DNA from: Pyrobaculum aerophilum str. IM2
GTDB lineage: Archaea; Thermoproteota; Thermoprotei; Thermoproteales; Thermoproteaceae
Direction: 5' to 3'
Length of the DNA: 32,000 bases
Assembly (NCBI RefSeq): GCF_000007225.1
Contig: NC_003364.1
Coordinates: forward strand, 1,140,001 to 1,172,000
Under the pieces are notes generated by a model. It did not search any database. It was not told where the DNA came from and was given only the letters and a program-made list of their open reading frames with translations. Shown piece by piece: positions 1 to 11,413 of this stretch. The stretch's first letter is position 1. Each line of letters opens with the position of its first letter. Both the position numbers and the translations under genes were made by a program.

Positions 1-1723
1 GAAAGGTTGAGTCTGCGTGGTAAATAGCCTCTACAGTGAGCTGGGCCTCCGCCTCTCCTCTGTACACTGCTCTAACTACGTCTTTAACTGTAGCGGACTT
101 GCCCCCGCAACTAAACTTCCCGCCGCTGTACTCCGGGTCGCACCCCAACACTTTCCGCGCCGCTTTTAAAAGCTCCTCTTTCAGCCTCCTGGCCGCAAGT
201 ATTGCCGCCGAGCCCCCAGCTGTTATTGACCGGCTGCCCATAGTCCCAATGCCGTCAGATATCAGGGCTGTGTCCCCCCAGACGACTTTAACAGACTCAA
301 TTGGCACGTCTAACTCCTCGGCGACTATTTGAGCCAGGGCAGTGGCCAGGCCCTGGCCGTGCGGCGTGAGGGCCGTGTACAACGTGAAAGTGCCGTCTCT
401 CTCAGCTCTGAGAATTGCCGTTTCGTAACCAAATGTTGTAATCTCTACGTATACCGAGAAGCCGACTCCTACGACGCGTCCGCGTTTAAGCTCCTCCTCA
501 GCCCACTGTTTAAGCTGGGAATAGCCCAGCCTCTCTAGCCCTTGTTTAAACGTGGTGAGGTAGTCGCCGGTGTCGTACGTAATGCCAAAGACATTTGTAT
601 AGGGCAGCTGTCGAATTAAATTCCTCTCCCTAATCTCCACTCTGTCTATGCCGAGCTCGTCGGCGAGGCGGTCCATAATTCTTTCAATAAAAAACGTGGC
701 CTCGGGCCTGCCGGCCCCCCTGTACGCGCTAAGCGGAGTTTTATTAGTCAACACTGCAACGGCTTTAACTCTGCCGTTGCGTATATCGTAAGGCCCCGGG
801 AGCATTCTCGCGGCCGTATCGGCCAGCCCCTCCCCCCAGTAATAAGCCCCTGCGTCGGCATATACAGTCCCCTCAATAGCTAAAATCCTCCCGTCGCGCG
901 TGGCGCCTACTCTGTAATCTAGTATTAACGCCCTGCCGTGAGTAGTCGTTTTGAAATCCTCGCTTCTAGTTGCAACCCACTTCACAGGCCTTTTCAATAA
1001 ATACGCCGCCTTGGAGACCCATATCTCCTCGGGGTAGACTATCAGTTTTGAGCCGAAGGCGCCGCCCACAAAGGGCTGTACCGCTCTTACTTTCACAAGG
1101 GGAATGTCAAGCGCCTTGGCCACTTCTTTTCTTATATCAAAAGGCACTTGGGTAGAGCTCCAAATAGTCAGCATATCGCCGTCATAAGCCGCCACCACCC
1201 CCCGGGGCTCCATAGCCGCCGGCACTACTCGTTGTATTGTAAGCCTCTCCTCTATCTTGACCTCAGCCTCTCTCATTGCACTGTCAACATCGCCTCCTTC
1301 ATACACCTCTTCATGTGCTATATTAGTGCCGAGGTTTTCGTCTACCAACGGCGCTCCTGGCCTCAAGGCCTCAAAGACGTCTAACACCGCCGGGAGGGGC
1401 TCGTAATCCACTACTACCTTCTCTAACGCGTCGTATAAAAGATAGCGGTCACCAGCCACGACCATGGCCACGGCCTCTCCCTGGTATCTCACCTTGCCCC
1501 CAGGGGCGAAGCCCATCTCCTCCGGCCCGAACACCGCCACAACTCCCTTTTGTTTAGCCGCGTCGGAGAGATCAACCCTAAGGACTCTGGCGTGGGCGTA
1601 GGGGGAGCGGACAAATCCCGCGTACAACATTCCAGGAAGGACTATGTCGTCGACGTACTGCGCCCGTCCGCTGAGAATTACGTCGTCCTCAAACCTGGGT
1701 ATCGGTCTGCCGACGTACTTCAT
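1..1723 (-). CDS. Molybdopterin-binding large subunit of an aerobic-type CO/xanthine dehydrogenase family enzyme (CoxL/XdhA-like), partial; the 3' end lies beyond the left edge
   Basis: The ORF is missing from the track because it runs off the window. The reverse-strand ATG at 1723 reads MKYVGRPIPRFEDD. It overlaps the upstream small-subunit stop (1720-1722) as ATGA. Reverse translation near 1440-1510 gives GFAPGGKVRYQGEAVAMVVAGDRY, typical of this family. The gene order is M-S-L. Confidence 0.85.
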   Translation of the reverse strand, partial: MKYVGRPIPRFEDDVILSGRAQYVDDIVLPGMLYAGFVRSPYAHARVLRVDLSDAAKQKGVVAVFGPEEMGFAPGGKVRYQGEAVAMVVAGDRYLLYDALEKVVVDYEPLPAVLDVFEALRPGAPLVDENLGTNIAHEEVYEGGDVDSAMREAEVKIEERLTIQRVVPAAMEPRGVVAAYDGDMLTIWSSTQVPFDIRKEVAKALDIPLVKVRAVQPFVGGAFGSKLIVYPEEIWVSKAAYLLKRPVKWVATRSEDFKTTTHGRALILDYRVGATRDGRILAIEGTVYADAGAYYWGEGLADTAARMLPGPYDIRNGRVKAVAVLTNKTPLSAYRGAGRPEATFFIERIMDRLADELGIDRVEIRERNLIRQLPYTNVFGITYDTGDYLTTFKQGLERLGYSQLKQWAEEELKRGRVVGVGFSVYVEITTFGYETAILRAERDGTFTLYTALTPHGQGLATALAQIVAEELDVPIESVKVVWGDTALISDGIGTMGSRSITAGGSAAILAARRLKEELLKAARKVLGCDPEYSGGKFSCGGKSATVKDVVRAVYRGEAEAQLTVEAIYHADSTF

Positions 1724-2163
1724 AGACCCGCTGCCTCTTTTATTGCATTAATAATGTTCTGGTAACCAGTGCATCTACACAATACCCCGCTAATGCCCTC
1801 TATGACTTCCTCCTCGCTCTTCACGCCCCTTTTCAGAAGGTGATAAGCCGTTAACAACATGCCCGAGGTGCAGAAGCCGCACTGCGCGGCGTGATTTCTC
1901 TTAAAAGCCTCTTTCAGCCTGTCCATAACTTCATCGCTGTGTTCAATTGTGAATATCTCCGCGCCGTCTGCCTGCACGGCGAGTATATTACAGCTCTTAA
2001 CAGGCCTCCCGTTCATTATAACCGTACAAGCGCCGCAAGTGGCAGTATCGCACCCGATTCGCACAGAGGTGAAGCCGAGCTCCCGCAGTACGTGGGCCAA
2101 CAGCCTGCGCGGCTCCACTTCCACTTCGTACAAAACTCCGTTTATTTTCAGGAAGACTCTCAT
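1720..2163 (-). CDS. [2Fe-2S]-binding small subunit of the CoxS/XdhC-type molybdoenzyme
   Basis: The 147-aa product has a plant-type ferredoxin cluster (CDTATCGACTV) and a second cluster (CGFCTSG...CRCTGY). It overlaps both flanking genes by 4 nt. Confidence 0.95.
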   Translation of the reverse strand: MRVFLKINGVLYEVEVEPRRLLAHVLRELGFTSVRIGCDTATCGACTVIMNGRPVKSCNILAVQADGAEIFTIEHSDEVMDRLKEAFKRNHAAQCGFCTSGMLLTAYHLLKRGVKSEEEVIEGISGVLCRCTGYQNIINAIKEAAGL

Positions 2164-2984
2164 AACCTCCCCAGCGCCCTCCTCAAGGCCACTCCTATTA
2201 AATGCCTCCTATACTCGGCAGAGGCCCTGAAGTCAGAGGGCGGGTTCGCCTCTCTCCTTGCGGCCTCGACGGCTTCGTCAATTACCTCAGGCCTAAGCGG
2301 AGCGCTCTCTAAAACTGCCTCCACTTTCCTAAGCCTCACGGGCCTGTCAGCCGCCCCTAAAGCGGCGATTTTAACGTTAAAGACGCGTCCTTCCTTTACC
2401 TCGCCGGTCACCGCGACGGCGGCGAGGGCGAAGTCGTTGTGCCTCCTTGAAAACTTGACGTACGCCCCCCTCTGCGGACATTTAAACGCCACGCCGGCCA
2501 CCAGCTCCCCCCTTTCAAGGGCTGTGGAGTACGCCCCCTTGAAGAACTTCTCGGCTTCCACCTCACGCCGTCCGCCTGGGCCTATGATTTTTACGACACC
2601 GCCCAGGGCCAACATCGCCGCGGGCCAATCGCCGAAGGGATCCGCGTGGGCTAGAGAACCGCCTAAGGTGCCGAGAGATCTAATCTGGACGTCCCCAATT
2701 CTAGATGCCACTTGCCTCAAAAACGGGCAGGGAGACTCCTCAAGCTCAAAATGCCTAGTCAAAGCCCCAAGCTCCACCACCTCCCCATAGCGGGCGTAAC
2801 GCAGTTCTGACAGGCGGCTGATGTCCACTAACAGCCCATATGAGACGGCGCGGAGCTTCAACAGGGGGATTAAGCTCTGTCCCCCCGCCAGCGGCGCCGA
2901 GTCGTCGCGACTAGACAACAACTTCAACGCCTCATCGAGACTGGTTGCCCGGACGTATTCGAAATTCGGCGGATACACGCACAA
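2160..2984 (-). CDS. FAD-binding medium subunit (CoxM-like) of the molybdoenzyme
   Basis: The 274-aa product has an N-terminus FEYVRATSLDEALKLL and motifs LAGGQSLIPLLKLR and GTLGGSLAHADP, typical of the CO dehydrogenase flavoprotein domain. The start is TTG at 2984 or GTG at 2978. Confidence 0.9.
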   Translation of the reverse strand: MCVYPPNFEYVRATSLDEALKLLSSRDDSAPLAGGQSLIPLLKLRAVSYGLLVDISRLSELRYARYGEVVELGALTRHFELEESPCPFLRQVASRIGDVQIRSLGTLGGSLAHADPFGDWPAAMLALGGVVKIIGPGGRREVEAEKFFKGAYSTALERGELVAGVAFKCPQRGAYVKFSRRHNDFALAAVAVTGEVKEGRVFNVKIAALGAADRPVRLRKVEAVLESAPLRPEVIDEAVEAARREANPPSDFRASAEYRRHLIGVALRRALGRL

Positions 2985-3008
2985 TCAACGGCACTCCATT
3001 TTTAACAA

Positions 3009-3761
3009 TTACCTCTGGATCTCGCCCATTGCCTCAAGGGCTTTGTAAAAAGCCCTGTACGCCGCGTCTGGATCTATAAGGGCTTTTGGCGCGTCCTCCC
3101 TTTTGAGAAAGCCTATGAATTCATCTATAGGGGCTTTCTCTGCGTACTTCGCGGCGTTGGGATCTCTGAGGAGGGAAAAGGCGTAAGTAGCAAGGTACTT
3201 AAACGACGTCCCGCCGTATTTAAACACTTCATCTCCCAGCTCGCCATAAAGCCTAGCCAAGGCCAGCCCCACGGCGTAGCTCAAGGCTATAGTCCTCGAG
3301 ACGTAGAAGTCGTGCTTTTCCAACTCCCCCCACTCGGCCCTGGCCCCCAGCTCAGACCAGAAGCGAAAAGCCTCCTCGGCCCCCCGGCGCCCCGGCACCG
3401 CCATTATTAAAACCCTCTGGCCGCGGATAGAAGAGGCCCCGGGGCCGAAGAGGGGGTGGACAGTGGCGACGAGGGCGTCTTGGGGGAACAAGCCGTAGGT
3501 CTCCACCACGCCCTCTTTAAAAGTGGCGATGTCCATTACAAGCCTCCCCCGGGAAAGGGGGGCCAGCGCCTTAAGCACGCCGCTTGTCTCCCAAAACGGC
3601 ACGGCCACAATCAGCGCCTCGGCCCACAGGGCCAGCTCCTCTAAAGAGCCCACGTCGGATCTCGACTTATCTACGTCGAAAATCCTCACCTCGTGTAAAG
3701 AGGTCATCTCCCTCTTCAGCCATGATCCCATGGCCCCGCCGCCCACAATTCCCACTCTCAT
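3009..3761 (-). CDS. tyrA: Prephenate dehydrogenase
   Basis: There is a Rossmann motif at MRVGIVGGGAMGS and a VHPLFGP motif. I moved the start from the track's 3812 to the ATG at 3761, because a TATA-like gtttataaatt (3781-3791) lies about 25 nt upstream of it. Confidence 0.8.
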   Translation of the reverse strand: MRVGIVGGGAMGSWLKREMTSLHEVRIFDVDKSRSDVGSLEELALWAEALIVAVPFWETSGVLKALAPLSRGRLVMDIATFKEGVVETYGLFPQDALVATVHPLFGPGASSIRGQRVLIMAVPGRRGAEEAFRFWSELGARAEWGELEKHDFYVSRTIALSYAVGLALARLYGELGDEVFKYGGTSFKYLATYAFSLLRDPNAAKYAEKAPIDEFIGFLKREDAPKALIDPDAAYRAFYKALEAMGEIQR

Positions 3762-3858
3762 GCACGACCCACTAGGCCAATTTATAAACATGCCGCCAAG
3801 CCTGGCGCCCAACAGCGCCTGTCAAAGGCGACTGCAGAAATACCAGTCCCGCGGAAGG

Positions 3859-4392
3859 CTATTCCTTGGACTCGCCCATCTCTTCGGCCTTTTTCCTCCT
3901 CGCGAGGGCCACCCAAATGGAGGCGTATGCATGTAGCTTCCACGTCTCGGGAGTGCCGTATTCTATAATTAGCCTCCTAGCCACCTCTCTCAGCCACAGG
4001 GCCTCTTCATATGTCAACTCCTCTTTCTGGATGAGCTCCTTCAGCCTCTCCACCTCCTCTTTAGAAAGCGGGTTGGCCCCCACCAGCTTCACAACACGCC
4101 AAAGCTCCCCCCTCGCGAGCTCCGCCCTTTTCTTGTCAATAACGTCCTCAGCAGTTAAAAACTCCAGGAAAAACTCTTGATAGCTAGCAAAACCGTTTAA
4201 TAAACGGCTAAACCTCTCATCTACATAACGCCTCAGCTCCCCCTGCCCCTCTCTTATCTGTCTCAACTCCCTCTCAACTGTCTTAAACCGCTTGTCGATC
4301 TCCTTAAACTTGCCTCTCAGCCAGTACAACGCGCCTCCCAACATCCCCACGACAGTGAGGGAAAACCCCACGACGTAGTAAACAATATCCAC
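3859..4392 (-). CDS. Hypothetical membrane-anchored coiled-coil protein
   Basis: The 177-aa product has an N-terminal TM segment (VYYVVGFSLTVVGMLGGALYWL) followed by a charged helical region. It starts at GTG and has its own TATA-like element (4411-4419 on the plus strand). I recognise no family. Confidence 0.6.
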   Translation of the reverse strand: MDIVYYVVGFSLTVVGMLGGALYWLRGKFKEIDKRFKTVERELRQIREGQGELRRYVDERFSRLLNGFASYQEFFLEFLTAEDVIDKKRAELARGELWRVVKLVGANPLSKEEVERLKELIQKEELTYEEALWLREVARRLIIEYGTPETWKLHAYASIWVALARRKKAEEMGESKE

Positions 4393-4438
4393 GAAAAGCT
4401 CTCCCCGCGCACATAAATACTTAACGGGAAACGCCCCC

Positions 4439-4933
4439 TTAGCTTAGAAAAGTGGGGTTGAAAACTGCGACAACTCTCAGCGTCTTGCCAGAGGGCACGT
4501 TGGCGTCTACGAGGACCTCCACGCGGGCGGGGACGCAGGCGCCCGGGGGGAGGACCCACCTCCACTCAGACCGATTGCCCCACTTAACCCCAAAGAAAGA
4601 CCCGTTTACATACACCGCGAAGACCCTAACCCCCTCGGGCACCTCAGAGACGCGCGCCCAAACCGCCGCGGGCTTGTCCGCCAAGTTGCACAGAGGCATT
4701 TCAAAAACGACGATAGAGCCAGGCGCCGCCTCCACCCAATGCGAGCCGTTAACTCCCACTCCAAACACAGCCGCCCGCGCGCCGCCCTCCCCCCTTGTTG
4801 CAAACGCCGCGGGGCCGAAGAAAAGCCCCAGCATTGACACAATTCCCATAATTAACAGGGCAACGGCCCACCTCCTCTCTTCCGGCGAAACCTCTTCAAC
4901 TTTAACTCTCTGTTCGACCTTGGCCTCGGTCAT
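4439..4933 (-). CDS. Secreted or membrane-anchored protein A3 of operon A (C-terminal LPPGAC...VDANVP motif)
   Basis: The ATG at 4933 overlaps the upstream stop (4930-4932) as ATGA; the track's TTG at 4939 is less likely. The product has one TM segment (WAVALLIMGIVSMLGLFF). Its C-terminus aligns without gaps to the C-terminus of the 202-aa protein at 10721-11329. Confidence 0.65.
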   Translation of the reverse strand: MTEAKVEQRVKVEEVSPEERRWAVALLIMGIVSMLGLFFGPAAFATRGEGGARAAVFGVGVNGSHWVEAAPGSIVVFEMPLCNLADKPAAVWARVSEVPEGVRVFAVYVNGSFFGVKWGNRSEWRWVLPPGACVPARVEVLVDANVPSGKTLRVVAVFNPTFLS

Positions 4934-7167
4934 CCCCAAGCCTCTATGGAGTACGCTTTTAGTATTTGTCCTGCGTTTGTTTTATACCCGACGTATTGCG
5001 GCGTTGTGGAGTATGTACAGCCGTATCTGGCCAGTATAGCGCCGTTTTGGTCTCTTATTATCACGTCGCCAAATCCGTTTAACGGCCTGAGCTCTACGTA
5101 TTTCGCCGCTGGGAGCGTGCCGAGGGCGACTGCTGAAGGCCCGCAGAGGGCTGAGAAGGAAGAGCCCGTCTTGAATACGCCGAAAATAACATTAAACGAG
5201 GAGTCAAAAACTACAAACGCCCCAACGCCGGTGAAATTAGAGAGGTAAGTGAGGGCGTTGGGGACGAGGCCTCTGTAAGCAACGGCGCCGTTAGCTAAAA
5301 ACAACGCGTAATTAGTTTGCCACGCGTAAACGCCTGTGGAGTACCAGCCGCCTGGGAGGGGACAGCTGTAGCTCGTAATGGAGACGGGGCCCCACAACAC
5401 CTGAATATCGCCGTTGATGTTACCTGAGTCGTAGTAGCTGGCGTCTGTTACGACAAGCGCTATTTTCAACACAGCGCCAGTGATAGAGCCGAGGTTTATG
5501 TTGAAGCTAAGAGTCTGCTTGTAGGAAGTTATAGCGCCTAGCGCAGTAACGAGGTATCCAGCCGGCGCGTTGCACGTGCCCGCCGAGGACACAGTGCACA
5601 CAACTTGGCTAGTGAACGGGGAGACGATTACGCCGTTGTACTGAGCCGTGTCGTAATAGTAGTAGATATATTCCACGTCGCCTACGCCGTCAAAATTACT
5701 ATCTACCAGTAGGTCGATGTACACGACGTTATTAATGCCATCTCCGACCCCTCTGTAGTACTGCGCGGTCACGGAAATCGCAGCGTTAGTGGCGTTGAAG
5801 ACGTAGCTGAAAATGCCGGCGGCGATGCCGTAATCGGCGCTGGGGTTGTTGTTATTCCCGTAGGCGTCCACCTGCGTCACTAAGTAATTCCCCGGCGCCA
5901 CGAACACTGAGGTGTACTGTTGCCCCCTAGTGACTGTCTGTAGATCGCTGGGAGCGGAACAGGGGGTTTGGATAGACAAATTCTTCCAGTCGACCCAGAA
6001 GTCGCCAGCGGGGGAACCTGCGACGAATCCCGAGGCATCGACCACGGCGAGGGCAACGCTCACGATATTCCCGCTCAGCGTACTGGGCAGCACTACTGTG
6101 ATTTTAAAAGCGGAACCGCTCGAGACGCTCTGGACCTTAATCAGCCCATATACCTGTGGCGGGTTTGTTGTCGGGTTACCGTTGGCGTCTATACTGGCTA
6201 CCTGAGTTCCTGGGTTCACCAGAACGGAGTAAATGGTGCCATTACCATCGGCGGTGTCCCATACATAGGCGATGATCTCTATGTCCGCTGTGCCGTTGCC
6301 GTTAGTGTCAATGCCAATTGACACATAAGCCACGTTGTTCTGAGTATCCCGCGAATTTCTGTAATAAGTTCCTTCCACAGACACCACGGTCCCCCCGGCT
6401 GAGATGGAGCCCCACCGCGATGTCACATTATAGATAATAGAAGATATACCATATCCTATTGGTCTTGCGTCTATTTGCGTTCTTATGGAAGTACCGGTAT
6501 ATTGAACGGGGTTTGTCAATGTGGCGGTAAAATACACGGTGTACTCCGTGATGTAGGCCGGCTTAGATGTATATGCCAGCGGGTCGTAGTATGTGGTGGA
6601 GCCGCTACATGTAAAGGTCTTTTGATATGTATAGCCGGGACAACTGAAGCTCTGTTGGTACAGCCTCTGCATTGGCTCTGCTGTGAAGTTCACCCACTGC
6701 CACGCCGTTATGCCTCCCTGTTGGAAAATTGCCCTGGCCAGCACGGAGTATCTGCCGGTTGTCGTCGTTGTCCATACAAGCTGGGCGGTTGTGGGGACGA
6801 AGGGCCCCGCGTCTTGCTGGTCAGTTATCTGCGGCTGGCCGCCTAGCGATATGGCGTAGGTGCCGCCGGGGTTGCCGGCGCGGGAGACGGCCACAAGCCT
6901 CGCGCTCCATCCGGGGTCGCGGGCTCTGAATCTGCCCACTACGTACTGCTCCGGCCACCCCGGCATGAACTTCATGTAGTAGTACGTAATGTTGACGTCT
7001 GATAACTGGTACCACCCCCTGGCCAGCGGGTATAGAGAGGCGTTGAAGTCTTTCATGACGGGGGGGAGCGTGGCGTTTACCCTCCAGTACGTGACGTTGA
7101 AGAAGGAAAACAGGGCGTATACGGCGGCTACTCCCAAGGCGATTAGCAGAAGCGCCAGCCTCTTCAT
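4930..7167 (-). CDS. Large secreted, sequon-rich beta-type protein A2 of operon A (745 aa) with an internal tandem domain duplication
   Basis: The product has an N-terminal hydrophobic segment followed by NVTYWRVNATLPPVMK. There are many N-x-S/T sequons and the composition is rich in T, S, G, Y, V and N. Two ~165-aa repeats are present (aa ~236-404 and ~445-604). It overlaps the upstream gene as ATGA. Confidence 0.75.
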   Translation of the reverse strand: MKRLALLLIALGVAAVYALFSFFNVTYWRVNATLPPVMKDFNASLYPLARGWYQLSDVNITYYYMKFMPGWPEQYVVGRFRARDPGWSARLVAVSRAGNPGGTYAISLGGQPQITDQQDAGPFVPTTAQLVWTTTTTGRYSVLARAIFQQGGITAWQWVNFTAEPMQRLYQQSFSCPGYTYQKTFTCSGSTTYYDPLAYTSKPAYITEYTVYFTATLTNPVQYTGTSIRTQIDARPIGYGISSIIYNVTSRWGSISAGGTVVSVEGTYYRNSRDTQNNVAYVSIGIDTNGNGTADIEIIAYVWDTADGNGTIYSVLVNPGTQVASIDANGNPTTNPPQVYGLIKVQSVSSGSAFKITVVLPSTLSGNIVSVALAVVDASGFVAGSPAGDFWVDWKNLSIQTPCSAPSDLQTVTRGQQYTSVFVAPGNYLVTQVDAYGNNNNPSADYGIAAGIFSYVFNATNAAISVTAQYYRGVGDGINNVVYIDLLVDSNFDGVGDVEYIYYYYDTAQYNGVIVSPFTSQVVCTVSSAGTCNAPAGYLVTALGAITSYKQTLSFNINLGSITGAVLKIALVVTDASYYDSGNINGDIQVLWGPVSITSYSCPLPGGWYSTGVYAWQTNYALFLANGAVAYRGLVPNALTYLSNFTGVGAFVVFDSSFNVIFGVFKTGSSFSALCGPSAVALGTLPAAKYVELRPLNGFGDVIIRDQNGAILARYGCTYSTTPQYVGYKTNAGQILKAYSIEAWG

Positions 7168-7835
7168 CCCGCCGCGGCGAGGAAGTCCAGCTTTTCCCTG
7201 TCCTCAGGCGGGAGGGCGCTGGGATCGACGGAGGACAGTATTACCTCTGCCGCCTTTTTCGGGTCAATGAAATAATAGGTAAAGGCTCCAATTCTAATGG
7301 ACTTCAGCTTCCCCTCCCTCTCCAAGACGTATATGTGCCACTGCACCGCGCCCCAGCTCTTGCCAGTGGCCTTAGCTATTTGCGACATAGTGGCGGCGCC
7401 CATTTGTTCCACCACGCGGAGTATTTCCCTCCTGGCGGGGTCGTCCGCAGCGGCCCTCTTTATCCTCGCCACAATGGGGAGTACGGGCGCGGCGAGGAGC
7501 TCCCTCCTGTTACTGGCGAGGTGGCTCAGTCCGGCCGCCGCCGCCACGCCGGTCGCGACGACTATAAGGGGCGACACAGTGGGCGGAGGGGCAGGCGGGG
7601 GAGGCGGGGCGCGGTATTCAACGGCTATGTAGCCGCTGAAAGCCGCTGGGCTTAACCCGGGGTTTGCGCACATAATCGTCACAGGCTTGTCTATGTATAA
7701 GACTCCAGTGGCGTTGCAAGCGCCCGCGGGCAAGACAGCGTGTACTGTGGCAGTAGTATTAGGCGGCACGTACACTGGGAACAGCCATGTGGCCAGAGGC
7801 GCCAGTATTATAAATACAGTGATGTTCACAAGCAT
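7164..7835 (-). CDS. Membrane-tethered winged-helix (ArsR/TrmB-like) transcription regulator A1. Layout: signal/TM, small extracellular domain, poly-Pro linker, TM, cytoplasmic wHTH
   Basis: N-terminal TM segment: VFIILAPLATWLFPV. The extracytoplasmic part carries LPAGAC. The linker is APPPPPAPPP. The second TM segment (LIVVATGVAAAAGL) is followed by NRRE. The wHTH region reads RREILRVVEQMGAATMSQIAKATGKSWGAVQWHIYVLEREGKL. Confidence 0.75.
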   Translation of the reverse strand: MLVNITVFIILAPLATWLFPVYVPPNTTATVHAVLPAGACNATGVLYIDKPVTIMCANPGLSPAAFSGYIAVEYRAPPPPPAPPPTVSPLIVVATGVAAAAGLSHLASNRRELLAAPVLPIVARIKRAAADDPARREILRVVEQMGAATMSQIAKATGKSWGAVQWHIYVLEREGKLKSIRIGAFTYYFIDPKKAAEVILSSVDPSALPPEDREKLDFLAAAG

Positions 7836-7850
7836 TTAAATGCTTCGATA

Positions 7851-7868
7851 TAAATATTCTACGTTGTG
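7851..7868 (-). promoter_or_regulatory. Promoter-proximal element upstream of operon A (plus-strand taaatattctacgttgtg): TATA/BRE plus an ACGT-centred site
   Basis: It matches 11352-11369 upstream of operon B at 17 of 18 positions. It lies 16-33 nt upstream of the A1 start codon (7835). Confidence 0.55.
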
Positions 7869-7897
7869 GTAATTATTACTACGGATCAATTCCGCGT

Positions 7898-8260
7898 TTA
7901 ACCGCCTCGGCGGGCCAGTTTTAACAAATCCCAGTACAAGCCCTTGTCCAGTATCTCTGTCACCAGCCCTAAGTCTAATGCGCCGTAGCCGTGCACTACG
8001 ACGTTTCTAAATCCTATTGTCCTCCTCAACAGCGCGGCCTCCAGTACTCCAAGTTGCGCAAGAGCCCTCGGTATGTCTGAATACTTAGCAGGCGGCTCCG
8101 TCCCCGCCTCCGCTGCCAGCCTCGACGCGGCGTCTATTAGCGCTTGTATTGCCACTTACATTAAACGCAACGCCGCGTTTAACAAGACGTAGTCTTCCAC
8201 AATTTCCCTGGCGCCGTGCCGCTTGACTAAGCCGTCGAGAGTCTCCACGTTTCTCTTCAC
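7898..8260 (-). pseudogene. hepT: HepT (DUF86/HEPN) toxin gene interrupted by an in-frame TAA
   Basis: The downstream part (7898-8155) carries the HEPN motif R-x4-H-x-Y (FRNVVVHGY). The same frame continues upstream as KRNVETLDGLVKRHGAREIVEDYVLLNAALRLM, then TAA (8156-8158), then VAIQALIDAAS. A probable GTG start at 8260 lies 8 nt after the MNT stop. The total is about 120 codons, the normal HepT size. Confidence 0.65.
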
Positions 8261-8268
8261 TAAGGAAA

Positions 8269-8673
8269 TCAGCGAGTCGATTTTTCCGATAGCGTCTTCA
8301 CAAACCTCTCCTGCACGCCTGTCTTCTTGAGGAATATTTGGAAGTCGGCCCACAGGTAAAACGCCTTTACTAACTTGTCTATGTACGCCCCCTTGTCTTT
8401 GGCATATATAAGCCTCCCCGCCAAGGTTCTGTATTTCAACTCGTAGGGCAAGTCGTCGGAAATTACGAGCACGTCCACTCGGTTCACGCCCAAGGCGTCT
8501 GAGGCGTCTACTGAAAAGTCTGCGATAAAAGCCAGCGGGTCGCAATTATCCGCTATCTTAACCGCCACGTCGACGTCGCTGAGTGGCCCCGCCCTGCCCG
8601 TCGCAACTGAGCCGAAAAGTACTGCGAAGATGACGCAGTCGCCGTATTTCTCCTCTATTAAGCCTCGACGCAA
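8269..8673 (-). CDS. mntA: MNT-type nucleotidyltransferase antitoxin (minimal nucleotidyltransferase)
   Basis: It has the motif FGSVATGRAGPLSDVDVAV (GS-x9/10-DxD). It sits directly upstream of the HepT-like gene. The start is TTG at 8673, 12 nt after the stop of the preceding membrane-protein gene. Confidence 0.85.
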   Translation of the reverse strand: MRRGLIEEKYGDCVIFAVLFGSVATGRAGPLSDVDVAVKIADNCDPLAFIADFSVDASDALGVNRVDVLVISDDLPYELKYRTLAGRLIYAKDKGAYIDKLVKAFYLWADFQIFLKKTGVQERFVKTLSEKSTR

Positions 8674-8685
8674 CCGCCTCGCTCA

Positions 8686-9048
8686 TTATATAAAGAAGGG
8701 GTCTCCCAGCCCTAGCGCCCTGGCCACAACGGCCAGGATTATTATATAAATCCACGCCGCCGCGGCGAATAGATACATCGTCCACCTCCTGCGGAACATG
8801 CCCCAGTAGGTATATGCAATGGACGTGGCGAGGAGGGCGAGGGCCAGGAGGTAGGTGAACCTCGCGTAGAACAGCCCCCACTGCTGGGCCAGCAGAGTGA
8901 GGACAAACCCGGCTATGAAAGAGACGATGGCTCCCGTCCACACGGTGAAAGTCACCGGGCGTGTGTAGTAGAAAAGGTATATAAGGGGCGCCAGGGCGGC
9001 GATGACGCCCCCCGCGGCGGCTATTAAGAAGGTCTCGGCGCCGTTCAT
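8686..9048 (-). CDS. Small polytopic membrane protein B4 (about 4 TM segments)
   Basis: I moved the start to the ATG at 9048 (MNGAETFLIAAAGG...). This sits 1 nt after the stop of the upstream gene (9050-9052). The product is almost entirely hydrophobic helices. Confidence 0.6.
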   Translation of the reverse strand: MNGAETFLIAAAGGVIAALAPLIYLFYYTRPVTFTVWTGAIVSFIAGFVLTLLAQQWGLFYARFTYLLALALLATSIAYTYWGMFRRRWTMYLFAAAAWIYIIILAVVARALGLGDPFFI

Positions 9049-9049
9049 G

Positions 9050-9451
9050 TTAAAACAGCCAGAGGCTGTAGTTGTTCGTCGCCAGCGCGGCGACGTAGAG
9101 GGCGAATAGGTATACATACGGCGCGCATGATATCAGCGCAAGCTCTAAATCCCGCTTTGACGGCCTCAGCGCTATGTTGAGCTGTATGAGTTGCGCGGCG
9201 ACTAGGAGCGCGAGGCCGATTACCGCCGACAGCCTCCACGCCGCGACTCCGCCGTATGCCACTGTAATCCACACCGCATATATATTGGCCGCCCCCGCCA
9301 GGACTAAAAAGGGCACGATGACATCTCGGTGTTGAAATAAAAGCTGGGGAGCCAGGCCGTAATACTTCGCAGTAAGCCTCTCTGCGTATACTCTGCCGAA
9401 GGCCACGGCCATGCCCACCGCAATGCCGACGAGAAGCGCAACGTAGTTCAT
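9050..9451 (-). CDS. Small polytopic membrane protein B3 (about 4 TM segments)
   Basis: The 133-aa product is hydrophobic throughout. It has its own TATA-like element (9473-9483 on the plus strand) about 27 nt upstream of the ATG at 9451. Confidence 0.65.
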   Translation of the reverse strand: MNYVALLVGIAVGMAVAFGRVYAERLTAKYYGLAPQLLFQHRDVIVPFLVLAGAANIYAVWITVAYGGVAAWRLSAVIGLALLVAAQLIQLNIALRPSKRDLELALISCAPYVYLFALYVAALATNNYSLWLF

Positions 9452-9482
9452 GTGATTGCGTATGCACCGGGGTTAAAATTTT

Positions 9483-10721
9483 TTACGTTTTCCAAGGCCT
9501 TAGAGACTCTTGAACCACTGAAATCACGGCGGGCCAGCCGCCCCAAGTCCCCGTTGGGTCGGCAACGACGTATATTGGCTCTGTCCAGCCGGAGGGCACG
9601 CCGCATGGCGGATTGCAAGTATAATAGGGGGAGGATCTGCTGAAAACCCAGTATTTAGACATGCCGTCTGTGTACAGCCAAGCAACGCCTTGTCTAAAAG
9701 GCCCTGTGGCGTTGAGAGGCTTGTACAGCGATACAAGCGTTGTGAGATAAGTAGAGACGCCGAATTGATACCTTATAACCGCGCCCCACATGCCAACAGG
9801 AGTGCTGTAAGTGTAGAAATGTACGCGGTAGGACTTGGCCGTAGCTACTGTGTAGTTAACCTCGCGGAGAGCCGTTTTGAAAACCCTCACCCCCTCAGCC
9901 CTAGGCGAGTCGAAGAAGGGCCCGGCGTAGCCCGGCAACACAACCCCCATTTCTCCCCGCAGAGTCGGGGCGGGAGGGACGGACACGTTGACCGCAGGGG
10001 GACACGGGGCATCGTAGACATACAGCTTTTCAACGCCTTGCAGTTTTACAAAAGCCCCGTATCTCTCTACCCCCTTGTCCGAGGGCGCGTACACTGGGGG
10101 AAGGACGTTAGGCACAACCTCTGCGTATTTTAAGGTCTCTGTTATGAGCACTGACTTGTTAAACACAAAGACGCAACCCGAGATGGGCAGTTTCCCCACG
10201 TCTCTCTCCCAGATGTAAAAAGCTCCGTCTCTGCCCACTTGCACGAACTGCCGTCCAGAGCCGTTGAGCGTAATCACCACGCGCTGGGCGGAGCCCGGGT
10301 ACCAGTCGACAAGCCTTACTTTTAACCTAACCGCGTCCCGCCACCCAGAGGGGTGGGTGAAGTTCACCAAGCACTCTCCCTCAAAGCCCGGCGGGATGGT
10401 TAAGTCGACGGGGTAGGCCCCGGGGGCTTCGCCCACAGAGGACACCCCCACTGCCCCGCAAGTAGACGACGCGAGAACTGTAGTCGGGTAGAACAACCTA
10501 ACCTCCACCGCCTTTGGGTAGAGCCAAGGCCCGTAGGGCGAGCTGTAGAGATACAGCGTCTTGTCTTCCGCAGCCACGTAGGAGGGCAACTGGCCCAGGG
10601 CCACTTCGGCTAAGGGACCGCTACGGAAGGCGTAATCGCCCCCCGGGGAGGTTAGGGCTATTATGAAGACGAGGGTGGGGAGGAATAAAAGGAGTGTTCT
10701 TATTACCGCCTCTTTGCGCAT
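9483..10721 (-). CDS. Secreted protein B2 of operon B (412 aa)
   Basis: It has an N-terminal signal/anchor (TLLLFLPTLVFIIALT), several N-x-S/T sequons, and a looser IPPGFEGEC motif. It is coupled to the upstream gene by a TAATG overlap at 10721. Confidence 0.7.
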   Translation of the reverse strand: MRKEAVIRTLLLFLPTLVFIIALTSPGGDYAFRSGPLAEVALGQLPSYVAAEDKTLYLYSSPYGPWLYPKAVEVRLFYPTTVLASSTCGAVGVSSVGEAPGAYPVDLTIPPGFEGECLVNFTHPSGWRDAVRLKVRLVDWYPGSAQRVVITLNGSGRQFVQVGRDGAFYIWERDVGKLPISGCVFVFNKSVLITETLKYAEVVPNVLPPVYAPSDKGVERYGAFVKLQGVEKLYVYDAPCPPAVNVSVPPAPTLRGEMGVVLPGYAGPFFDSPRAEGVRVFKTALREVNYTVATAKSYRVHFYTYSTPVGMWGAVIRYQFGVSTYLTTLVSLYKPLNATGPFRQGVAWLYTDGMSKYWVFSRSSPYYTCNPPCGVPSGWTEPIYVVADPTGTWGGWPAVISVVQESLRPWKT

Positions 10722-11329
10722 TACTGCGGCACTTTCTCTATGTTGACTTGGAAGGCGGCGAGGGTCTCGTAATACGGCGCGTTTGCGTCAATTATCATGT
10801 CAACGCCCAACACCGCACAAGTGCCGGAGGGTAGAGTCACGTAGTCAGTTGTCGTGTCCACGGGCTGTCCATCTTTAATTATAACAATAGGATCGGCGGG
10901 AGGCGGCGTGGGCTCTACAAACTTAATGGCAAGGTATCTTATCAGTTTGGCGCCGGAGCCCGTGGTCCCGTTTTGATAAGTTACAGTGAAGTCTTGTAGC
11001 AGTAAGACGTCTGAAATTCTTATCTTAATGTCTGTATTGTAGTTATTACAGACGCGTAAGGCGTTGGTAATGTTGAGAATATCGCCGGGGACGCCGGTTA
11101 CGTAAACTCTCGTTATGTTAAGACCCGTGTTCGGGTCGTAGTACCAATCTGCCTTTACAAACGTCCCGTTCATAACATTAGTATCTTTGCCGACGTATTT
11201 AATCACCGGCGGCTCAGTGGTGTTTACATACCAATATGTCACGTTTAATACAGACACAGCCGCAAACAGCGCCACTGCTCCAAGCAATACGACTATTAGC
11301 CCCAAAGCCCTGTACTCCCTCCTTGTCAT
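10721..11329 (-). CDS. Secreted protein B1 of operon B (202 aa), carrying both the NVTYW-VN-T-PPV-K and the LPSGTC...IDANAP motifs
   Basis: N-terminus: RALGLIVVLLGAVALFAAVSVLNVTYWYVNTTEPPVIK, compared with A2's NVTYWRVNATLPPVMK. C-terminus: LPSGTCAVLGVDMIIDANAP, compared with A3's LPPGACVPARVEVLVDANVP. Confidence 0.7.
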   Translation of the reverse strand: MTRREYRALGLIVVLLGAVALFAAVSVLNVTYWYVNTTEPPVIKYVGKDTNVMNGTFVKADWYYDPNTGLNITRVYVTGVPGDILNITNALRVCNNYNTDIKIRISDVLLLQDFTVTYQNGTTGSGAKLIRYLAIKFVEPTPPPADPIVIIKDGQPVDTTTDYVTLPSGTCAVLGVDMIIDANAPYYETLAAFQVNIEKVPQ

Positions 11330-11351
11330 GTATCGAAGAAATGTACCTAGT

Positions 11352-11369
11352 TAAATATTCAACGTTGTG
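11352..11369 (-). promoter_or_regulatory. Promoter-proximal element upstream of operon B (plus-strand taaatattcaacgttgtg), containing the palindrome CAACGTTG
   Basis: It matches 7851-7868 at 17 of 18 positions. The TATA part is centred about 27 nt upstream of the B1 ATG (11329). The palindrome (11360-11367) lies between the divergent B1 and GTPase promoters. Confidence 0.55.
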
Positions 11370-11413
11370 CCGTTCAGACATACACATCTTTATATATGGG
11401 AGGGGGTTTTTCC

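Follow-up and report, generated by a model that had tools for sequence, protein, structure and literature searches.

The 32,000-nucleotide stretch of the Pyrobaculum aerophilum str. IM2 genome analysed here (the window; C1:1140001-1172000, C1 being the single 2,222,430-bp contig of this genome, G000) contains two nearly identical 18-nt sequences within a gene cluster for the archaeal bundling pilus (ABP). One lies upstream of B1, a bundling-pilin gene, and the other upstream of A1, which encodes a membrane-anchored winged helix-turn-helix (wHTH) protein. Both belong to a conserved, locus-specific sequence that is contiguous with a good TFB recognition element (BRE) and TATA box at two or three promoters of the cluster. 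Judging from its sequence and distribution, this element is very probably a control site for the bundling-pilus filament system. We favour, with somewhat better than even confidence, the reading that the 18-mer is the core of a 19-21-bp composite ABP promoter element, in which a core promoter is combined with an operator whose likely binder belongs to the family of A1 and its small soluble paralogue sA1. The parts of the element in the window are as follows.

11351..11371, minus strand: B1 promoter element GGCACAACGTTGAATATTTAA, recognized by its rarity, top matrix score, conservation in orthologues and promoter geometry
11351-11357, minus strand: TATA box of B1, TATTTAA, at -28..-22 from ATG 11329
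11360-11367, minus strand: palindrome of the B1 promoter, CAACGTTG, at -38..-31 from ATG 11329
11368-11371, minus strand: specific 5' flank of the B1 promoter, GGCA, reaching -42
7850..7870, minus strand: promoter element of A1, the wHTH gene, ACCACAACGTAGAATATTTAT, recognized by its rarity, a score of 25.0 bits and orthologous A1 promoters with CRCAACGTTAAATAT
7850-7856, minus strand: TATA box of A1, TATTTAT, at -27..-21 from GTG 7829
7859-7866, minus strand: box of the A1 promoter, CAACGTAG, at -37..-30 from GTG 7829

The two 18-nt copies, taaatattcTacgttgtg at 7851-7868 and taaatattcAacgttgtg at 11352-11369, were first noticed in a preliminary description of this DNA, whose coordinates are exact; they agree at 17 of 18 positions, differing by one base. 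That description was also right about the 8-nt perfect palindrome at 11360-11367 and about its location between the B1 promoter and the promoter of a divergent GTPase gene (TATA at 11389-11396). Its statement that the pair is not part of a larger duplication agrees with the sequences around the two copies, which are unrelated to each other, and with the non-homologous N-termini of A1 and B1 (it is A2, a large ectoprotein of the cluster, that has its N-terminal 76 aa in common with B1, with 38% identity and E=2e-9).

Both sites are rare. Within the window, a search allowing up to 3 mismatches finds just these two, compared with an expectation of 0.02 from shuffled sequence and with two or more sites in 0 of 100 shuffles. 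In the whole 2.22-Mb genome, the pattern CACAACGT[A/T]GAATATTTA has 2 sites and no others appear with up to 2 mismatches, so that the genome search proposed in the preliminary description returns a cluster-specific motif and not a generic promoter consensus. With a weight matrix built from 21 orthologous sites of other genomes, this genome's own sites being excluded, the B1 site has the highest score of the whole genome (35.1 bits) and the A1 site the third highest (25.0 bits), the scores below them falling to 19. The second-ranking site, C1:1278853 (25.4 bits), lies inside a long open reading frame (ORF) read as a class II aminoacyl-tRNA synthetase and is probably a chance match, since about 0.1 chance matches are expected at that score. 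One 19-bit site, C1:1750804, is at the edge of an ORF for a secreted-looking protein. We also observe an inverted 8-mer, TATCGAAG, just 3' of both TATA boxes on opposite strands, which we regard as chance because it is not conserved in orthologues.

Anatomy and conservation of the element

Ordinary promoters of this genome were characterized from the upstream regions of 1011 long ORFs, in which A+T content peaks at -26 to -21 from the start codon. Alignment of 645 promoters by expectation maximization gives the generic consensus WAAWR-TTTAWAWA, with column 0 at -37/-38 and the TATA box ending about 20 nt before the start. The ABP sites align at -36..-39 in this register: TATWTAA is the TATA box and G-Y-W-R-A-A occupies the position of the BRE (RNWAAW), so that a TATA-like octamer and an upstream BRE are found at the genome-typical distance from the start codon. 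The 8-11 nt adjoining the BRE on its 5' side, ACGGCRC-W-AC, are another matter, as they fall in columns with at most 0.12 bits in ordinary promoters, and WACG occurs in that register in 11 of 458 TATA-anchored promoters. Housekeeping promoters had indeed been described as following a different pattern. The earlier reading of the element as an ACGT site followed by BRE and TATA has to be modified: the link to the promoter stands, but the right half of the palindrome takes up the BRE position itself, and the specific part is the 8-11 nt 5' of it (ACGGCRCWAC-G).

Scored with the generic matrix, the ABP core promoters reach the 61st-94th percentile, and are on that account considered intrinsically good. 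The generic geometry is the leaderless geometry known for P. aerophilum, in which leaderless mRNAs are established according to a citation in PMC2151090. Our literature searches for transcription-start data on these particular promoters found none.

The 100-110 nt upstream of each orthologue of B0 (abpA type), B1 (its paralogue) and A1 were then compared, giving 36 orthologous promoters from about 20 genomes in two genera, aligned on the box. This footprint, which had been suggested as a check on the motif, consists of a 19-column block with 0.9-2.0 bits per column, between flanks with mostly about 0.1 and at most 0.6 bits. In other words, a block of 19-21 nt located 20-22 nt 5' of the ATG or GTG is conserved, and the sequence around it is random. 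The block reads GGCRCAACGTTGAATATWTAAA at pilin promoters and CRCAACGTTAAATATWTAT at wHTH promoters, and therefore precedes non-homologous genes of one cluster. It has outlasted both the divergence of the proteins to 35-50% identity and the randomization of the flanks. In the genus as a whole, the pattern CRCAACGTTRAATATWTAA, searched with at most 2 mismatches, is near-exclusive to the cluster in 15 of 16 genomes, and the reversed-pattern control gives 0 matches in most genomes and close to 0 in the others. The wider motif GCRCAA-N5-AATAT is not enriched by itself (2 matches, vs 2 in the reversed control). Conservation among orthologues without conservation of the flanks, occurrence before non-homologous genes and rarity elsewhere are all features of an operator.

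These data bear on one alternative, namely that there is no specific regulation and that a strong core promoter was copied by duplication or gene conversion and then kept by descent. As B0 and B1 lie in tandem and are paralogous, duplication of the genes may have included the promoters, and a recent B0 duplicate in G005 has an identical promoter. Against this, the wHTH gene carries the element though it is no paralogue of abpA, and positions without a role in generic promoters are invariant across two genera. Moreover, G004 has lost the cluster, with abpA reduced to a remnant of 121 codons, and its element is altered at two positions that hardly vary elsewhere. We consider descent alone highly improbable as an explanation.

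The box also varies in an ordered way. In the sister genus (g2), CTACGYAAAATAT is found at both the abpA and the wHTH promoters, as it is in G014; at both promoters, these genomes have CTACG[TC]AAAATATATAT where the others have CAACGTT[GA]AATAT. The abpA and wHTH sites of G051 are identical over 17 nt. Pair 2/7 of the palindrome is A.T in 24 sites and T.A in 8, and is complementary in 32 of 36, so the swap converts CAACGTTG into (C)TACGTA(A) and keeps the dyad. A shared dimeric binding protein predicts that two unlinked sites are altered together and symmetrically, which makes this change suggestive, and only that.

The same features help to judge a further alternative, in which the 5' half is an extended BRE read by a TFB paralogue, the element then defining a class of promoters and not an operator. 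The TFB3-dependent pilus and DNA-import promoters of Sulfolobus provide an analogue. The G of ACG falls on the R of RNWAAW, the BRE consensus, and box and BRE adjoin without a gap; in addition, the left half is common to a wider class of eight CRCTACG[GC]A..ATTTTTTAAAWTGGAT promoters in G000, and the box precedes assorted genes in the sister genus. On the other hand, a dyad with a symmetric change at pair 2/7 is unexpected for a monomeric TFB contact, and co-resident classes differ within one genome, with CAACGTT at ABP promoters vs CTACGCA at sA1-type promoters. No cluster-linked TFB gene was found, though no systematic search for one was made. Altogether, we regard the TFB-paralogue explanation as improbable.

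Two weaker copies of the element had been proposed, one before B3 and one before the gene at 3859-4392, and neither withstands scoring with the matrix. At 9473-9489, the ACGT is composed of the last codon of B2, ACG (Thr), and the T of its TAA stop; the site scores 2.6 bits and is absent from the top 30 of the genome even with a broader matrix that includes the sister-genus variants. The site at 4411-4428 scores -7.3 bits, and the gene that follows (A4) is present just in G000 and G001, within a near-identical segment where conservation is uninformative. The sequence before B3 is better described as follows.

9464..9489, minus strand: AT-rich box AAACGTAAAAAATTTTAA after the B2 stop, 21 nt before the B3 ATG; a possible internal promoter, not a copy of the element

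A layout of ACG plus AT-rich box before B3 is found in 6 of 10 genomes; it is absent where B2 and B3 abut, and lies outside the B2 coding sequence in G007. This box is indistinguishable from ordinary promoters and is possibly an internal promoter.

Candidate binding proteins and the wider box family

7164..7829, minus strand: A1, membrane-anchored wHTH protein (reading frame 7164-7835, probable start GTG 7829), identified by Pfam, PDB and orthologue alignment

A1 is itself a gene of the cluster, and its promoter carries the box. The protein probably starts at GTG 7829 and not at ATG 7835, because all A1 orthologues begin with (M)N[IV]T. The protein comprises a transmembrane (TM) segment, an ectodomain of about 60 aa, a Pro-rich linker, a second TM segment and a cytoplasmic ArsR-like wHTH (a winged helix of the ArsR/Lrp type), with hydrophobic segments at about residues 3-22 and 89-108, the wHTH at 130-195 and no HAMP domain found by Pfam. 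It matches HTH_24 (PF13412; 1e-6, 28.6 bits) and HTH_5 (PF01022; 3.2e-5, 24.2 bits), the latter above the family threshold of 22 and indicative of an ArsR/SmtB-type wHTH; its best PDB relatives are ArsR-family proteins, with weak matches (E=5e-4). The ectodomain region (window 7590-7829, about residues 1-83) shows a weak, order-permuted similarity to the C-terminal beta-strands of B1 (E=1e-4 and 0.005), which includes an LPxGxC motif that A3 has too.

The second candidate, sA1, is a small soluble wHTH paralogue encoded at C1:1729739-1730002 (82 aa from MARAKTAK; locus C1:1729739-1730027), 49% identical to the wHTH of A1. It was found by a class-wide search in 14 of 16 Pyrobaculum genomes and in about half of the sister genus. 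Its promoter is aACGGCGCTACGCAAGATTTTTTAAATTGGAT in G000, and the box aACGGCGCTACGCAAGATTTTTTAAA is conserved in the 14 genomes examined. The left 11 nt of this promoter, ACGGCGC-T-ACG, are equal to the left half of the abpA box, cACGGCRC-A-ACG, with the ACG of each at -36..-34 relative to the start codon. The recognition helices scarcely differ, being SWGAVQWHIYVLEREG in A1 and SWGRLQWHLYVLEREG in sA1 (LSWGRLQWHLYVLEREG for sA1 in G000).

The A1/sA1 family is confined to Thermoproteaceae apart from one weak match, which is the same range as that of the ACG box, and no genome with the box is without a protein of the wHTH family. In Thermofilaceae, abpA is present, A1/sA1 is absent apart from one weak match, and the abpA promoters have a different box, GAACTAAAAA. 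The Thermofilaceae loci L095-L108 show their own conserved abpA box, TGAACTAAAAAGTTTATAA, with a leader of about 30 nt. The association that holds wherever examined thus appears to be that of the box family with the wHTH family, and not of the box with A1 alone. In Pyrobaculum genomes with both A1 and sA1, ABP boxes (CAACGTT) are distinct from sA1-type boxes (CTACGCA), which would be consistent with a specialization of the paralogues.

Several observations weigh against the operator reading or against a model with A1 as the sole binder. The A1 helix (KSWGAVQWHIYVLEREG) is invariant across lineages with differing boxes (CAACGTT, CTACGYA); covariation of the recognition helix with box type was looked for and none was convincing, as a KTW vs KSW difference follows three of four ACACCACA-type promoters but also follows phylogeny. 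Full-length A1 paralogues with almost the same helix have another box, ACACCACAAAATAT, at their own promoters (the G000 paralogue, C1:2028832-2029493, is frameshifted in the Pro-rich linker). The dyad is just 8 bp long; the abpA sites contain it as the palindrome CAACGTTG (TACGTA in the sister genus), but wHTH-gene sites match it at 7/8 or worse, and the symmetric change at pair 2/7 amounts in essence to a single event in one lineage. At the A1 gene, G002 and G015 have a degenerate box, and G013 has one of the ACACCACA type in its place. Finally, although A1 and the ABP genes are missing from G052, the sister-genus box is found there upstream of two type IV pilin-like genes, of an MscS-like gene and of one for an FAD oxidoreductase, and it is likewise present at the orthologous promoters of other g2 genomes. 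A1 is therefore not a universal binder.

Some of these points lend themselves to another explanation, a real operator bound by a factor encoded elsewhere and unrelated to A1/sA1, with A1 merely one of its targets. The invariant helix and the box of G052 count in its favour, as do the perfect abpA boxes of G013 and G002, where the A1-gene box is lost. Yet all box-bearing genomes have at least one member of the wHTH family, and A1 and sA1 both carry the box on their own promoters in the same register, the usual signature of autoregulation. We consider an unrelated factor unlikely. The preliminary description had proposed a small regulon, possibly controlled by A1: A1 is a reasonable candidate, but it is not the sole one, given sA1, G052 and the lack of helix covariation.

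In the composite-element reading that we favour, the 3' part (G-Y-W-R-A-A plus TATWTAA) would act as a near-consensus BRE/TATA, with transcription starting at or within a few bases of the start codon to give leaderless mRNA. The 5' part, with the sequence ACGGCRC-W-AC and the G of the BRE as its continuation, forms the palindrome CAACGTTG in Pyrobaculum; it would be a sequence-specific protein site, predicted to abut and overlap the TFB position. The presumed binder is a dimer of the Thermoproteaceae-specific wHTH family, A1 and/or the soluble sA1, with CAACGTTG and CTACGCAA as candidate DNA targets. We lean towards repression by TFB occlusion with ArsR-like negative autoregulation, because the core promoters are good and the site overlaps the BRE; a signal for release might pass through the A1 ectodomain. 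Activation by TFB recruitment is possible as the opposite sign. Either way, the pilin gene or genes, then abpB and the membrane-protein genes, and the wHTH-A2-A3 unit would be placed under common dedicated control, and with the element shared by both promoters, the cluster would be organized as two or three co-regulated units and not as one eight-gene operon.

Related boxes are found elsewhere in the genome. The eight promoters of the CRCTACG[GC]A..ATTTTTTAAAWTGGAT class are that of sA1 and seven more, at the following positions.

C1:347963: sA1-class promoter
C1:852042: sA1-class promoter
C1:889062: sA1-class promoter
C1:931055: sA1-class promoter
C1:1191904: sA1-class promoter
C1:1734852: sA1-class promoter
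C1:1944154: sA1-class promoter

Six of the seven precede paralogous genes of about 50 aa (MPLVVEVLGIHAHVLRRYGV..., with just a weak DUF7831 match) and one precedes a 75-aa ORF. Another box, ACACCACAAAATAT, takes the corresponding place in the promoters of a type IV pilin-like gene (C1:524709-525168) and of the full-length A1 paralogue (C1:2028832-2029528). At the pilin orthologue, 8 genomes have kept it, but G008 and G014 have in its place the ABP-type ACG box of the respective genome. A third, GGCACAAAGCAAAATATTTAA, is located 20 nt before the gene for a 509-aa polytopic membrane protein, followed by a 494-aa Walker A ATPase (C1:430022-433080), which may be read from their sequences as a type IV pilus platform and its ATPase. 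This box is kept in at least three other genomes, and GGCACAA...AATATTTAA is common to it and the ABP box.

One could go further and imagine a private Thermoproteaceae code for surface filaments, composed of boxes at -42..-31 and the wHTH family; we mention this as a speculation that is unlikely to hold. Under such a code, ACGGCRC-WACG would denote the bundling pili and the sA1 regulon, ACACCACAA the type IV pilin and GGCACAAAG the type IV pilus assembly operon, and would be matched by the soluble sA1 on one side and the membrane-anchored A1 and its paralogues on the other. The A1 ectodomain would then detect extracellular pilin that is unassembled or being assembled, for instance through strand complementation, and relay this back to the pilin promoters.

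Organization of the bundling-pilus cluster

The other genes of the cluster and its surroundings in the window are listed below.

10721..11329, minus strand: B1, AbpA-type bundling pilin paralogue, 202 aa, with a full-length PDB 7UEG match
9483..10721, minus strand: B2, AbpB (TapA-like) orthologue, 412 aa, assigned from synteny and 47% identity to the gene adjoining abpA in G002
8686..9451, minus strand: B3 and B4, two small polytopic membrane proteins, whose order is kept in at least 10 genomes
9050-9451, minus strand: B3
8686-9051, minus strand: B4, with a probable internal ATG start (MNGAETF...), as orthologue alignments begin at residues 23-28
7898..8673, minus strand: MNT/HepT toxin-antitoxin cassette (Pfam HepT-like, 5e-14)
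4930-7167, minus strand: A2, 745-aa beta-rich ectoprotein with a pilin-like N-terminus
4439-4939, minus strand: A3, 166 aa
11389..11905, plus strand: divergent small GTPase, with TATA box TTTATATA at 11389-11396; orthologues align from residue 9 or 23

B1 matches 7UEG, the P. calidifontis bundling pilin solved by electron cryomicroscopy, over residues 3-196 (E=4.2e-21), and is 34% identical to P. calidifontis AbpA. The gene corresponding to B2 was named AbpB in PMC9245690. A2 and A3 are co-directional with A1, and their stops and starts overlap. Comparing the window proteins with loci of relatives by tblastn, we find the order [abpA]-[abpA paralogue]-abpB-two membrane proteins-wHTH-A2-A3 conserved in some 15 genomes of two genera, so that an AbpA (TasA-like) homologue is accompanied by abpB, two membrane proteins, a wHTH protein and a large ectoprotein in order. 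G002 is P. calidifontis, as identified by its AbpA sequence, and its genes Pcal_0910 to Pcal_0903 were described as a "potential operon of eight genes" (Wang et al. 2022, PMC9245690; PDB 7UEG); A1 is the counterpart of Pcal_0905, and the GTPase is inside the P. calidifontis operon (PMC9245690). G000 lacks the Pcal_0910-type copy of abpA and keeps the paralogue alone. As the conserved order is that of the published Pcal_0910-0903 locus, operons A and B, which had been taken for two operons, are halves of one known cluster with an internal promoter before the wHTH gene; what stands from the earlier view is that the element marks more than one transcription unit.

The MNT/HepT cassette occupies the B4/A1 junction, directly upstream of the A1 box, just in G000, G010 and G003. 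In most relatives, which have no cassette at this junction, the wHTH gene directly follows B4, and G008 has a related cassette between B2 and A1. These three genomes tolerate an insertion immediately before the A1 box, as would be expected if the wHTH unit had a promoter of its own. In G000, the reading frame of HepT is split.

On the other side of B1, the box of the element is about 21 nt upstream of the GTPase TATA. The GTPase probably starts at GTG 11414 and not at ATG 11396, which falls inside its own TATA box. A paralogue of this GTPase (…FLGVGGVGKTTYIYRLLG…) is encoded at C1:2034063-2034644, about 5 kb from the A1 paralogue, so that the wHTH-GTPase neighbourhood is repeated.

Compared with G001, window 1-7830 forms a DNA block with 96.7% overall identity, in which the proteins from tyrA to A2 are about 97-100% identical. 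Identity drops to 73% for the A1 protein and to about 73% for the DNA of the B half. This contrast points to a recent exchange between the G000 and G001 lineages, probably with a breakpoint near the A1/A2 junction.

Significance and comparison with known systems

The gene cluster is already known, and it is the element, the organization into several promoters and the link to a wHTH family that are absent from the papers searched. In this literature, nothing is reported on how ABP expression is switched on, and the word promoter does not occur in the structural paper (PMC9245690). Bundling pili are the archaeal counterpart of the bacterial TasA biofilm fibres, and their structure was solved in 2022. 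The element offers a precise and testable handle on their control, in the form of some 12 specific bases at two or three promoters in each genome, for which two candidate binders can be named, and it turns the "eight-gene operon" into co-regulated units. In Pyrobaculum and Thermoproteus, a single box family ties the bundling pili to type IV pilin genes and to the gene of a small regulator. Operators that adjoin an archaeal core promoter and are served by a one-component regulator, a probable one in this case, are a known type of arrangement; here, the putative operator is set against the BRE, a natural example useful for studying interference with, or recruitment of, TFB by regulators at high temperature.

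The closest working analogue is that of ArnR/ArnR1 and the ArnR boxes at the archaellum (flaB) promoter of Sulfolobus acidocaldarius, where binding was shown experimentally (PMC6396743), the binding by A1 being predicted from sequence. ArnR is, and A1 would be, a membrane-bound HTH one-component regulator of a crenarchaeal surface filament, with cross-talk with other pilus promoters and with conserved cis boxes upstream of BRE/TATA that have dyad symmetry (imperfect in the wHTH-gene sites of the ABP cluster). Nevertheless, their domain orders differ: from the N-terminus on, ArnR consists of the HTH, a HAMP-like and sensor part and a pair of TM segments, and A1 of a TM-ectodomain-TM part and the wHTH. 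The ArnR boxes are two 15-bp repeats, TCGAC-N5-GTCGA, at -43 to -84, whereas the ABP promoters have a single box at -42..-31 that touches or overlaps the BRE. With its reversed domain order, lack of HAMP and different box, A1 is not a member of the ArnR family.

The ABP operon of P. calidifontis is the orthologous cluster, with an abpA-type pilin, abpB, two membrane proteins, a wHTH protein, a large ectoprotein and a GTPase nearby. It was presented as one potential eight-gene operon with promoters unmentioned (PMC9245690), whereas, judging from the element, abpA, its paralogue and the wHTH unit would each have a promoter of their own, under shared regulation.

The comparison extends to bacteria through the TasA-like and TapA-like pilus proteins. 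In Bacillus subtilis, SinR operators at the tapA-sipW-tasA promoter place the homologous TasA/TapA filament system under a dedicated HTH repressor. SinR differs from the system proposed here in acting on a sigma-70 promoter, in belonging to an unrelated repressor family without a membrane anchor, and in its unrelated operators. Among archaeal regulators, TFB-RF1 of Pyrococcus furiosus and Ptr2 of Methanocaldococcus jannaschii have sites directly upstream of BRE/TATA and act on TFB/TBP recruitment. These two proteins activate promoters with a weak BRE/TATA, whereas the ABP genes combine good core promoters with a site that overlaps the BRE, an arrangement with which occlusion agrees at least as well.

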